A stretch of 4,883 bases of DNA from a virus (Duplodnaviria > Heunggongvirae > Uroviricota > Caudoviricetes), in IMG/VR virus record IMGVR_UViG_2645727555_000008. The stretch is one strand, 5' to 3'. Each line of letters starts with the position of its first letter. Position 1 is the stretch's first letter. Both the position numbers and the translations under genes were made by a program. Under the pieces are notes generated by a model. That model saw only the letters and a program-made list of their open reading frames with translations, made no database searches and was not told where the DNA came from. Shown piece by piece: positions 319 through 2,188 of this stretch.

Positions 319-335
319 TTATTCACATATCCACA
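319..335 (+). promoter_or_regulatory. Two tandem DnaA boxes
   Basis: TTATTCACA (319-327) and ATATCCACA (327-335), each one mismatch from the TTATCCACA consensus, placed just outside the GATC cluster and iterons as in the P1 oriR layout. Confidence 0.6.
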
Positions 336-341
336 GGATAG

Positions 342-399
342 ATCCTAATAAAGAGATCCATAGATAGATCCTTGTATAGATCAAATAAGATCCCCGATC
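342..399. promoter_or_regulatory. GATC (Dam methylation) site cluster in AT-rich origin region
   Basis: Six GATC sites at 342, 354, 367, 379, 389 and 396 within 58 bp, mostly in repeated (T)AGATCC units; chance expectation is about one per 256 bp. P1-type origins carry clustered GATC repeats required for initiation. Confidence 0.7.
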
Positions 400-440
400 G
401 CTGTAAGCCGCGCCACGACTGGTCTGAAGCCATGTTCATG

Positions 441-541
441 TATGCTGTCAGCGGTAATTGATAGTCTGTCAACGGTTCGCCGTATGCTGCCAACTGTTTT
501 TGGTATGCTGCCAGCGGCAAATCAAGTATGCTGTCAGCGGT
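441..541 (+). repeat. Upstream iteron array (4 copies, incC-like)
   Basis: Direct repeats of the 15-bp core TATGCTGTCAGCGGT at 441-455, 483-497 (degenerate, TATGCTGCCAACTGT), 504-518 and 527-541; spacing 21-23 bp, with a half-iteron TGTCAACGGT at 466-475. Lies directly upstream of repA, so the repA promoter is probably embedded here. Confidence 0.85.
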
Positions 542-561
542 TGAATGACAAAGGTGTCCAC

Positions 562-1656
562 ATGTCCACAAAAAATAAAAAAGGTAAAAATAACAAAGAA
601 GTAGAAGATAATCTCGACAACTTTGAAGAAGGTTCCCTTGAATTGTACACAGGGGAACTTGTCCCTAATAGCAACAATACAGTCCAACCAATTGCGTTGA
701 TGCGGCTGGGATTGTTCGTGCCCACGCTCAAGGGGACAAAATACAGCAAGCGTAACAAGCCAAATGAGATCGATGCTTCAAAGGAGCTTGTTCAGCTCGA
801 AGTAGCCCGTTCTGAAGGCTATTCCGATATCAAGATAACCGGTCCTCGTCTCGACATGGATCATGATTTCAAAACGTGGGTGGGCGTTGTGCGTTCGCTG
901 GCAGAATACGGCGAACCTAACGGTCGTGTCGAGTTAAGCATCACGAAATTTGCGAAGTTTTGTGGCTATCCATCGTCACAGATCCGCAAAACACTCCGCG
1001 ACCGGCTTACAAACAGTCTTTTGAAGATCATGCGTACAACTCTGTCTTTCCAGAGAACGTATGAAGAAAAGAACGTCGACGGCTCTAACAAGATCTCGCT
1101 TCTGATGGTGCACCTCATCAATAGCGTGGACTACAACGAGCAGAAAGATACGGTGGTGTTCTATGCAGAACCGAAGCTGGCCGAACTATATCGCTTTGAC
1201 CATAAGGTTCTTTTGCAGTTAAAGGTTATCAATAAGCTACCACGCAAAGAAACAGCACAGGCTCTGTACACCTTCATCGAAAGTCTTCCAACCAAGCCTG
1301 CGCCGGTATCGCTTGCTCGATTGCGTGCGCGACTCAATTTGAGTAGCAGGAATGTAAGCTCGCAGAATCAGACTATACGTAACGGCTTAAAAGCTCTCCA
1401 AGATTTGGGCTATCTCGAATACAGCGAGATTAAGCGAGGGCGGTCGATCTATATCCAGATTCACAGCCGCAATCCAAAACTTAAAGTCGCACCGCCAAAA
1501 CCTGAAGACATCGAACCCAAAAAACCAGATGAGAAAGCCGGGGAAATTGATGCTAAACAGAACATTATCAACAAGATAACTGAACTTTCGCAGAATTTGA
1601 CGCCTGAAAATATCAAGATGATTGAGATCCTTTCCAATAGTCTCAAACTGCTTTGA
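562..1656 (+). CDS. repA: Plasmid replication initiator RepA, P1/RepFIB iteron-binding family (364 aa)
   Basis: Start ATG at 562 with SD AAGGTG 6 nt upstream; TGA at 1654-1656. From memory, motifs NSNNTVQPIALMRLGLFVP, KITGPRLDMDHDFKTW, LLQ and YTFIESLP...PLSLARLR...HSRNPKLK closely match phage P1 RepA. Flanked on both sides by iterons. The 404-aa track ORF from 442 is rejected because its upstream Met codons are the ATGs inside the iterons. Confidence 0.85.
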   Translation: MSTKNKKGKNNKEVEDNLDNFEEGSLELYTGELVPNSNNTVQPIALMRLGLFVPTLKGTKYSKRNKPNEIDASKELVQLEVARSEGYSDIKITGPRLDMDHDFKTWVGVVRSLAEYGEPNGRVELSITKFAKFCGYPSSQIRKTLRDRLTNSLLKIMRTTLSFQRTYEEKNVDGSNKISLLMVHLINSVDYNEQKDTVVFYAEPKLAELYRFDHKVLLQLKVINKLPRKETAQALYTFIESLPTKPAPVSLARLRARLNLSSRNVSSQNQTIRNGLKALQDLGYLEYSEIKRGRSIYIQIHSRNPKLKVAPPKPEDIEPKKPDEKAGEIDAKQNIINKITELSQNLTPENIKMIEILSNSLKLL

Positions 1657-1773
1657 TATGCTGTCAGCGGTGAAATGTATGCTATCAGCGGCTATTTTTC
1701 TGAAAAGTATGCTGTGAACGGTTAAAGATATGCTACCAGCGGTATAGTGAGATGAACGTATGCTGTGAGCGGT
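1657..1773 (+). repeat. Downstream iteron array I (5 copies, incA-like)
   Basis: TATGCTGTCAGCGGT-type repeats at 1657-1671, 1678-1692, 1708-1722, 1729-1743 and 1759-1773; spacing alternates 21 and 30 bp; first copy starts immediately after the repA stop codon. Confidence 0.85.
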
Positions 1774-1934
1774 AAATCATCTATCACCACTCAATGCTCT
1801 GTCATACCTCCCCAGTGGTTACTAACCTCGAAGAGTGCATTCCATATAGGTTTGCGCTCACTAACATTCTATTGCTATTGCGCTGATTGCTTGTAGTGAA
1901 AGGCATTTATTGCCTGCTACTCCCTGATAGAATG

Positions 1935-2188
1935 TATGCTGTCAGCGGTGTTTTATTGAGGAATTTTTGTTTGGATATGCTATCAGCGGTAATTAATGGC
2001 ATATGTCAGACCTTCGTATGCTGCCAGCGGTAATTTTGTTCTGGTTATACCCATACCGGTACACATTATTCATGCAATGTCTTAAGTATGCTGTCAGCGG
2101 TAAAAAATCGAGTAAAGTATGCTGTGAGCGGTGAGATAGACTCTCGATATGCTATCAGCGGCAGTTGATTGTGTATGCTGTCAGCGGT
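1935..2188 (+). repeat. Downstream iteron array II (7 copies)
   Basis: Repeats at 1935-1949, 1976-1990, 2017-2031, 2087-2101, 2118-2132, 2148-2162 and 2174-2188, all in the same orientation as the other arrays; spacings 41, 41, 70, 31, 30, 26 bp. Separated from array I by a 161-bp unique spacer. Confidence 0.85.

Follow-up and report, generated by a model that had tools for sequence, protein, structure and literature searches.

Positions 319-2188 of the window, by which we mean the whole 4,883-nt stretch of viral DNA analysed here (IMG/VR record IMGVR_UViG_2645727555_000008), very probably constitute a plasmid-maintenance (prophage-state) iteron replicon of the P1/RepFIB type, carried by an SSU5-like E. 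coli phage-plasmid. This assignment draws on the elements themselves and their statistical significance, on the homology of RepA and the origin to those of P1, on the fold of the initiator, on an occurrence confined to plasmids, and on the boundaries of a cassette that differs between otherwise closely related elements. From 88 to 4794 the window is 99.3% identical to pECAZ155_2, an E. coli plasmid of ~110 kb in which the replicon at 319-2188 is the sole replicon typed, and it is 98% identical to the phages PhiR41_1 and CMS-2020a; the ~110 kb E. coli plasmids that match the window are SSU5-like phage-plasmids. The replicon is found in 119 of 5,426 complete E. coli genomes (~2%), every time on a plasmid and with no chromosomal location, and the exact RepA protein occurs in 739 blocks of public assemblies. 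The replicon sits in the SSU5-type backbone locus, between an ASCH-like gene and cra-like, SPFH and RecA-like genes, and its gene neighbourhood is one of phage DNA metabolism (SbcCD, RecA-like, gp32-like, DNA polymerase III alpha and ribonucleotide reductase). Such surroundings might be expected if the unit were a lytic replication origin of the phage rather than an origin for plasmid maintenance, but we find this hardly credible: in P1 and RepFIB, iteron/RepA replicons of this family serve for maintenance at low copy number, IncF plasmids that are not phages replicate by means of the same RepA family, and control iterons restrain replication where lytic growth would call for the reverse.

The elements that a first-pass annotation of this DNA had listed, namely DnaA boxes, a GATC cluster, a GC-rich spacer, iterons, repA and a second iteron array, all lie where it had placed them and go beyond what chance would produce. 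At the outer edge of the origin, two abutting DnaA boxes occupy 319-335 on the plus strand (TTATTCACA at 319-327 and ATATCCACA at 327-335). Each agrees with the DnaA-box consensus TTATCCACA at eight of nine positions, neither being perfect. An abutting same-strand pair did not arise once in 1000 dinucleotide shuffles; the pair aligns with the annotated tandem DnaA site of P1 oriR and is unchanged in 11 independent relatives. Beside it, at 337-399, are AT-rich, GATC-containing heptamer-like repeats with six Dam sites (at 341, 355, 367, 379, 389 and 396). Six GATC sites thus fall within 59 bp (341-399), compared with a maximum of four per 59-bp span over 1000 shuffles. The run aligns with the Dam sites annotated in P1 oriR, five in number, and the Klebsiella, SSU5, Cyrano and IncFIB relatives have the same cluster. 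By analogy, we presume that 337-399 is the region of unwinding and of Dam/SeqA control. Between these repeats and the origin iterons, with the DnaA boxes and GATC heptamers on its outer side, lies a GC-rich spacer (400-435), where the GC fraction is 0.61, compared with 0.33 at 300-399 and 0.44 for the whole window; the motif GCCGCGCCACG.CTGG within it is common to P1 and the window. Two further, weaker DnaA-box-like motifs, GTGTCCACA and ATGTCCACA (seven of nine consensus positions each), overlap the start of repA at 553-570 on the plus strand. The equivalent position in the Klebsiella relative holds GTATCCACA (8/9), P1 has CTATCCACA between incC and repA, and 553-570 is possibly a right-hand DnaA site. 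A search for the IHF consensus WATCARNNNNTTR found no site within the replicon.

Allowing up to three mismatches, TATGCTGTCAGCGGT has 17 matches in the window, all on the plus strand, where 0.10 would be expected; they fall into groups of 5 + 5 + 7, which corrects the sixteen copies counted in the first-pass annotation. The conserved iteron unit is 16 nt long, R-TATGCTGTCAGCGGT. Five direct copies, the equivalent of P1 incC, lie immediately upstream of repA at 440-541 (plus strand) with spacings of 21, 21, 21 and 23 bp, and because they are phased two helical turns apart they should present themselves on one face of the DNA. The second array, 3' of repA, comprises twelve copies (1657-2188), all on the plus strand. 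Its first block (1656-1773) has five direct iterons, the first of which abuts the repA stop codon (1654-1656), and its second (1934-2188) has seven direct iterons spaced by 41, 41, 70, 31, 30 and 26. The two blocks are separated by an iteron-free spacer of 160 bp (1774-1933) that folds better than its shuffles (z = -3.0) and has no counterpart in the Klebsiella relative; an Rfam search of the whole window, this spacer included, returned no match at E <= 1. Scanning the 160-bp and 70-bp gaps with a position weight matrix (PWM) uncovered no further strong iteron, degenerate or inverted. Both the count of 17 and the order of the iterons are kept in 11 independent relatives, four of which differ in iteron spacing: L013, L014 and L017 by 1 bp, and L019 by 10 bp in the spacer plus 1 bp. 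In the annotated P1 record the promoter PrepA lies inside the five incC iterons, and by the same token the repA promoter of the window is presumed to lie within the origin iterons; a sigma-70 consensus scan found no clear promoter in or near them, and none is assigned. One inverted iteron-like site was also seen inside repA (894-909, PWM score 12.9), as part of an 18/19 inverted match with 474-492 of a quality that none of 200 shuffles reached. We do not count it as a working iteron: it is probably non-functional, and the Klebsiella relative conserves only 12 of the 19 positions.

The initiator gene, repA (562-1656, plus strand), encodes a predicted iteron-binding protein of 364 aa, with a variable lysine-rich N-terminus, a WH1-WH2 core at roughly aa 65-305, a Pro/Lys linker and a two-helix C-terminal tail. 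The start at 562 is also the one chosen by gene callers in public assemblies, and the N-terminal residues MSTKNKK are kept in the Klebsiella homologue; a RefSeq call of 404 aa, which starts at 442 and runs through the iterons, is probably over-extended. Similarity to the P1 and RepFIB initiators, on which the first-pass annotation had staked its reading, is pronounced. By tblastn, aa 32-309 are 43.5% identical to the RepA proteins of P1 and P7 (E 2e-64), in an alignment that is collinear along the full length of P1 RepA, and identity to classical IncFIB RepA (MOB-suite-typed) is ~50%. Pfam Rep3_N scores 37.5 bits on RepA, against a cut-off (gathering score) of 22.4, and Rep3_C (WH2) was not detected in the protein by sequence. 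In an AF2 model of RepA the mean pLDDT is 67.7, with most of the core at 75-90, and a Foldseek search of the PDB with this model returned RctB domains 2-3 (E 1.9e-8), RepE (5.6e-5) and pi (1.3e-2). As modelled, then, RepA is an initiator with the Rep_3 WH1-WH2 winged-helix fold. It was the fold search alone that matched, as sequence searches of the PDB gave no match with either RepA by itself or a seven-sequence profile. NCBIfam yielded no match for RepA or for three ORFs beside it.

How close is this replicon to that of P1? The P1-like order proposed in the first-pass annotation agrees with the annotated P1 record element by element (tandem DnaA boxes, Dam sites, GC spacer, five iterons, repA, second array), and window 308-422 is ~77% identical in DNA to P1 oriR. 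P1 likewise has five origin iterons, spaced by 21, 21, 21 and 22 bp compared with 21, 21, 21 and 23 bp in the window, and its incA array too starts at the repA stop. The iteron itself differs, however, being GATGTGTGCTGGAGGG in P1 and R-TATGCTGTCAGCGGT in the window. The 12 control iterons of the window are all direct and split 5 + 7, whereas P1 has nine, six of them inverted; intact GATC sites number six in the window and five in P1; and RepA, at 364 aa compared with 286 aa, carries N- and C-terminal extensions, including the two-helix C-terminal tail that P1 RepA lacks. Unlike P1, the window has no parAB after the control array, and the host element is an SSU5-like siphovirus phage-plasmid rather than a P1-like myovirus. 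The P1 iteron sequence GATGTGTGCTGGAGGGAAA, taken as the mark of IncY, is absent, and only the GT.TGCTG portion is P1-like. Because the iteron sequence differs, the specificity should be distinct from that of P1, and we infer from the sequence that this is the same kind of replicon as P1 with an incompatibility specificity other than IncY. The earlier suggestion of a distinct specificity therefore holds with respect to P1, but the specificity is not a new one, since Klebsiella pKPHS1-type elements share the iteron core.

What is known of P1 and RepFIB suggests how the unit would work. RepA monomers would bind the five origin iterons, and host DnaA would occupy the outer tandem boxes, and perhaps also the weak site at the repA start. 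Together, RepA and DnaA would open the adjacent AT-rich GATC-heptamer region, after which the host helicase and replisome would be loaded; a dependence on the chaperones DnaK, DnaJ and GrpE would be expected on the same grounds. At the GATC heptamers, Dam methylation and SeqA would control when initiation can recur, and RepA bound to the origin iterons would repress repA's own promoter. The 12 downstream iterons, in turn, would bind RepA and pair with the origin iterons, such that handcuffing and titration would keep copy number low. The geometry of this pairing may differ from that in P1, because the downstream iterons are all direct and are split by the 160-bp spacer. It is also conceivable, though we think it improbable, that the 12 repeats downstream act as a second origin, or in partition or anchoring, and not in negative copy control. 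They are all direct and partly phased at 21 bp (1657/1678 and 1708/1729), like the origin iterons, and duplicated origins do occur in the SSU5/Cyrano group, as its cassette holds two tandem origin-like modules. But the downstream blocks have no DnaA boxes, GATC cluster or AT-rich region beside them, and since the repeats are the RepA iteron itself, competition for RepA must follow. They also begin at the repA stop, just where the P1 record places the incompatibility determinant incA, a negative copy-control element. We thus favor negative copy control as the role of the downstream array.

The Klebsiella, SSU5 and Cyrano relatives and two IncFIB ones repeat the layout of DnaA box, GATC cluster, iterons, repA and further iterons, a hallmark of the family, each with an iteron of its own. 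In the RepFIB replicons of p50EVA-1 and pCFSAN060804, a DnaA box, five GATC sites, iterons, repA and downstream iterons are present, and their RepA proteins (~50% identical to that of the window) also end in the C-terminal linker-plus-helix tail. They differ in having iterons of the CTACAGCTTATA type in mixed orientations, and near aa 170 the window RepA is longer by an insertion of ~7-9 aa. Much closer are the Klebsiella pKPHS1-type phage-plasmids, which agree with the window in iteron core, origin layout and backbone locus and whose RepA shows 85-88% identity from end to end, both extensions included. In L007, a Klebsiella plasmid with a close homologue that we compared in place of pKPHS1, DNA identity over the origin and repA is 75.9%, RepA identity is 85.8% and the iteron cores are the same. 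Downstream of repA, the Klebsiella replicon carries 9 iterons (4 + 5), compared with 12 (5 + 7) in the window. The IncpKPHS1 group has been defined by a repA with >96% nucleotide identity to that of pKPHS1 together with an SSU5-like backbone, and the DNA identity to L007 lies far under that threshold; the defining paper mentions no more than four iterons downstream and is silent on a P1-like origin upstream (PMC6735626). Our literature search found no dissection of the origin of the replicon studied here.

The SSU5/Cyrano elements (pLF82) offer a different kind of comparison, for they occupy the same locus in a backbone that is ~96-99% identical. The outer module of Cyrano, with DnaA boxes, GATC repeats and spacer, is homologous to that of the window (~81% over window 88-428, and ~66-76% within 238-428), and its RepA is of the same family (48% identity). 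Its iteron, in contrast, is TATCCACTGTAG, its downstream iterons are in mixed orientation, and the SSU5/Cyrano cassette places two tandem origin-like modules upstream of repA. Homology to Cyrano stops at ~428, and identity of ~98% returns at 2219. This natural swap delimits the specificity unit as ~428-2219. A GC-rich hairpin at 2204-2227, resembling a bidirectional terminator (a 9-bp stem, 6 of its pairs GC, found on either strand), lies between the replicon and the convergent cra-like gene, and it marks the right edge of the exchangeable cassette.

The two ends of the window are of a different nature. Positions 1-93 and 4790-4883 are exact inverted copies of the oriIS-side end of an IS91-family element; both junctions abut CAAG, which is the target at other copies of the same IS, and the IS ends truncate the flanking genes. 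All plasmid matches end at 88 and 4794/4795. Exact scans of genome, metagenome and viral contigs failed to turn up the junctions, as did a megablast against 5,426 E. coli genomes, and the chimeric 52-aa ORF at an IS junction had no match when looked up. One explanation is that the window is a captured or remnant 4.7-kb piece of backbone between inverted IS91-family copies, serving as a secondary or silent replicon in another plasmid or a cointegrate and not as what drives an autonomous phage-plasmid. The exact inverted ends, the CAAG junctions, the truncated genes, the common end points of the plasmid matches and the absence of the junctions from every collection searched speak in its favor. 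We nevertheless consider it unlikely, as the replicon is intact, its RepA matches that of pD4-type plasmids (H81) at 100% identity and its iteron layout is that of autonomous plasmids; the inverted ends could also reflect two IS insertions in a complete phage-plasmid, or an effect of assembly. We keep to the reading of a maintenance replicon of an SSU5-like phage-plasmid. More tentatively, we speculate that such replicons are built in two halves. The half that sets specificity (iterons, repA and control iterons; ~428-2219) would be exchangeable at the boundary between spacer and iterons, the half that serves host factors (DnaA boxes, GATC repeats and spacer) would stay bound to the backbone, and the IS91-family bracketing could represent a step on the way to other plasmids capturing a phage-plasmid replicon. 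Taken as a whole, this combined proposal is doubtful. If it were true, near-identical SSU5-like phage-plasmids could switch incompatibility type and co-reside.

By sequence comparison, the replicon is already known rather than new, with near-unchanged copies in hundreds of public plasmids, and it may correspond to the PlasmidFinder entry 'IncFIB(H89-PhagePlasmid)'. Given this near-unchanged presence and its P1-like build, we regard it as ordinary, though real. Its practical value is chiefly one of annotation, and it opens no new biological question: origin, initiator and control array are now mapped exactly for a replicon that ~2% of complete E. coli genomes possess, and these coordinates can be used for replicon typing, for predicting incompatibility among phage-plasmids and for building mini-replicons. 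For the family, the comparison indicates that the specificity determinants of these E. coli phage-plasmids are common with those of the Klebsiella pKPHS1-type elements and differ from those of P1, classical IncFIB and SSU5/Cyrano.

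The window holds a real and complete P1/RepFIB-type replicon, and the DnaA boxes, GATC cluster, GC-rich spacer, iterons, repA and second set of iterons that the first-pass annotation had placed at 319-2188 are all found there. Two abutting DnaA boxes (319-335, each 8/9) lie upstream of the first iteron block, with six GATC sites between 341 and 399 and, directly after these, a spacer of 61% GC (400-435). Across 1000 dinucleotide-preserving shuffles a same-strand pair of DnaA boxes never arose, and the count of GATC sites in a 59-bp span never exceeded four, versus six in the window. 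Matches to the iteron core TATGCTGTCAGCGGT at three or fewer mismatches number 17, one more than first counted, all on the + strand and with 0.10 expected by chance in a scan of the window. Five of them precede repA (441-541, spaced 21, 21, 21 and 23 bp), and the repA stop codon (1654-1656) is followed at once by the downstream array, split into blocks of five (1657-1773) and seven (1935-2188). Alignment of the copies gives a conserved unit of 16 nt, R-TATGCTGTCAGCGGT, with AT-rich, unconserved flanks. Neither the 160-bp gap (1774-1933) nor the 70-bp one holds a further copy by a position-weight scan, whose sole extra match is a weak inverted iteron-like site within repA. The 160-bp iteron-free spacer that divides the downstream array folds better than shuffles (z = -3.0) and includes a hairpin at ~1893-1920; searches for an Rfam match to it and for a counterpart in the Klebsiella relative found neither. 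Origin iteron 3 with its left spacer (474-492) also matches a site in repA (899-917) in inverted orientation at 18/19 positions. None of 200 shuffles gives such a match, but the Klebsiella relative keeps just 12/19, so it is probably non-functional.

The likeness to P1 extends well beyond layout. In the annotated P1 record a DnaA site of 18 bp comes first, then five Dam sites and a GC-rich spacer; five incC iterons at 21-22 bp spacing, which contain the repA promoter, precede repA, and the incA iterons begin at the repA stop. The order of elements in the window is identical, as had been claimed. Because 308-422 aligns to the P1 origin oriR at 77% DNA identity, covering GGATAGATCC, the GATC heptamers and GCCGCGCCACG.CTGG, the resemblance is, on this alignment, one of homology rather than analogy. 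The two replicons differ in the downstream array, where 6/9 P1 incA copies are inverted and 12/12 copies in the window are direct, and in the iteron itself, which is GATGTGTGCTGGAGGG in P1. The suggestion of a distinct specificity thus stands with respect to P1, but the specificity is not unique to this element, its iteron core being common to the Klebsiella elements. Two weak DnaA-like motifs (TGTCCACA, twice) overlap the start of repA; the Klebsiella relative has an 8/9 DnaA box in their place, and P1 has a DnaA box between incC and repA, so a right-hand DnaA site here is plausible but unproven. A consensus scan for a repA promoter found no convincing candidate.

The initiator, encoded by repA (562-1656, 364 aa), bears out the comparison on which the first-pass annotation had staked its reading: it is 43.5% identical to P1 and P7 RepA over residues 32-309 (E 2e-64) and ~50% identical to the initiators of plasmids typed as IncFIB by MOB-suite. 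RefSeq gives a 404-aa protein starting at 442, which reads across 4/5 origin iterons; in favour of the start at 562 are the gene calls of other assemblies, an AAAGG motif 7 nt before it and a conserved N-terminus, MSTKNKK. In an alignment of seven sequences, collinearity extends along the full length of P1 RepA, to which the window protein adds a variable Lys-rich N-terminus and, at residues 309-364 (1486-1653), a Pro/Lys-rich linker and two-helix C-terminal tail. Such a linker and helices are absent from P1 RepA; the tail is kept in the Klebsiella homologues and is present, though altered, in the RepFIB and SSU5 types. RepA matches Pfam Rep3_N (WH1) above the gathering score. An AlphaFold2 model built from 35 homologues is of moderate quality (mean pLDDT 67.7, core mostly 75-90, tail ~84), and winged-helix iteron initiators make up all of its top PDB fold matches (RctB domains 2-3, RepE of F and pi of R6K).

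A full set of cognate elements, homology to P1, an initiator fold and residence on autonomous plasmids only are all observed, and on established work on P1 and RepFIB we commit to the P1 model of replication for this replicon. RepA monomers would fill the five phased origin iterons, DnaA would take the tandem boxes, and the two proteins would jointly open the AT-rich stretch of GATC heptamers, in which re-initiation would be under the control of Dam methylation and SeqA. RepA would repress its own promoter, expected within the iterons, and the downstream iterons would limit copy number by titrating RepA and handcuffing origins.

Frequency counts, Klebsiella relatives and typing-tool coverage show the replicon to be well represented in public data, with near-identical copies in abundance, and already typed. 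Over 88-4794 the window shares 99.3% identity with E. coli plasmids of ~110 kb such as pECAZ155_2, in which RepA carries the annotation "RepB family plasmid replication initiator protein" and rep_cluster_488 is the only replicon typed. Two phage records, PhiR41_1 and CMS-2020a, match the same DNA at 98% identity. The gene neighbourhood is that of an SSU5-like phage-plasmid (ribonucleotide reductase, SbcCD, RecA-like, gp32-like and DNA polymerase III alpha genes). The downstream backbone, all on the minus strand, comprises a cra-like 70-aa ORF and small hypothetical ORFs (within 2236-4677), a DUF7238 protein (3330-3755) and an SPFH/Band 7 lipoprotein-like protein (3847-4677), whose gene also shares ~76% DNA identity with genes in phages P88 and phiP27. 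The exact 364-aa RepA occurs in 739 blocks of a public-assembly index, and the replicon proper (430-2200) in 119 of 5,426 complete E. coli genomes, in no case on a chromosome. All 11 independent copies retain the 17 iterons in unchanged order, with spacing altered in four (by 1 bp in three, by 10 bp and 1 bp in L019). Klebsiella phage-plasmids have a RepA 85-88% identical, with the same iteron core and origin layout and nine downstream iterons against 12 in the window; that group has been proposed as IncpKPHS1, with only four downstream iterons noted (PMC6735626). Typing tools already list SSU5-type replication genes under IncFIB (bioRxiv 10.1101/2025.09.12.675607). Our literature search found no paper dissecting the origin of this replicon.

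Comparison with the phage-plasmid Cyrano (pLF82; PMC9928086) marks out the limits of the unit. On both flanks the Cyrano backbone is ~96-99% identical to pECAZ155_2; from ~238 identity falls to ~70% through intergenic DNA, DnaA boxes, GATC repeats and spacer, the last three staying homologous at ~70-80%, homology is lost at ~428, and 98% identity resumes at 2219, within a hairpin (2204-2227). Between these edges Cyrano carries an SSU5-type RepA (48% identical) and another iteron, TATCCACTGTAG. This replacement in a near-identical backbone indicates that iterons, repA and control iterons (428-2219) move as one specificity cassette, and 319-2188 fits the functional unit well. Upstream of repA, Cyrano (L002, 4241-4456 and 4567-4851) and likewise SSU5 (L009) have two tandem origin-like modules, each with DnaA boxes, GATC-type heptamers, a spacer and ~5-6 iterons, the GATC sites of the inner module being partly degenerate.

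The two window ends, 1-93 and 4790-4883, form an exact inverted repeat and match a sequence present in over 1,600 plasmids of E. coli and Shigella. In those plasmids it follows an IS91-like (ISEc37 family) transposase gene at a distance of ~100 bp, and by these matches we assign both window ends to the oriIS-side terminus of an ISEc37-like element of the IS91 family. The end ...TTCCTATCGAT adjoins CAAG at both window junctions and GAAC or CAAG at other copies, which fits the target preference of the IS91 family. Two genes, one ASCH-like and one for a small membrane protein, are cut short at the junctions, and neither junction was found in PLSDB, the 5,426 complete E. coli genomes, three contig collections or the protein index. 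The simplest reading is two inverted insertions of the same IS around a 4.7-kb piece holding the whole replicon; alternatively, the contig ends may reflect the IS repeat. IS91-type elements also adjoin other replicons of the P1/RepFIB family, since in the classical IncFIB plasmid p50EVA-1 (L010, ~1000-1040) a different IS91-family element, with the end ...TTTCCTATACGT against GAAC, stops ~100 bp short of the RepFIB DnaA box on its upstream side. Only two aspects of the window replicon, the cassette swap and the IS91 bracketing, are unusual, and both only mildly so.
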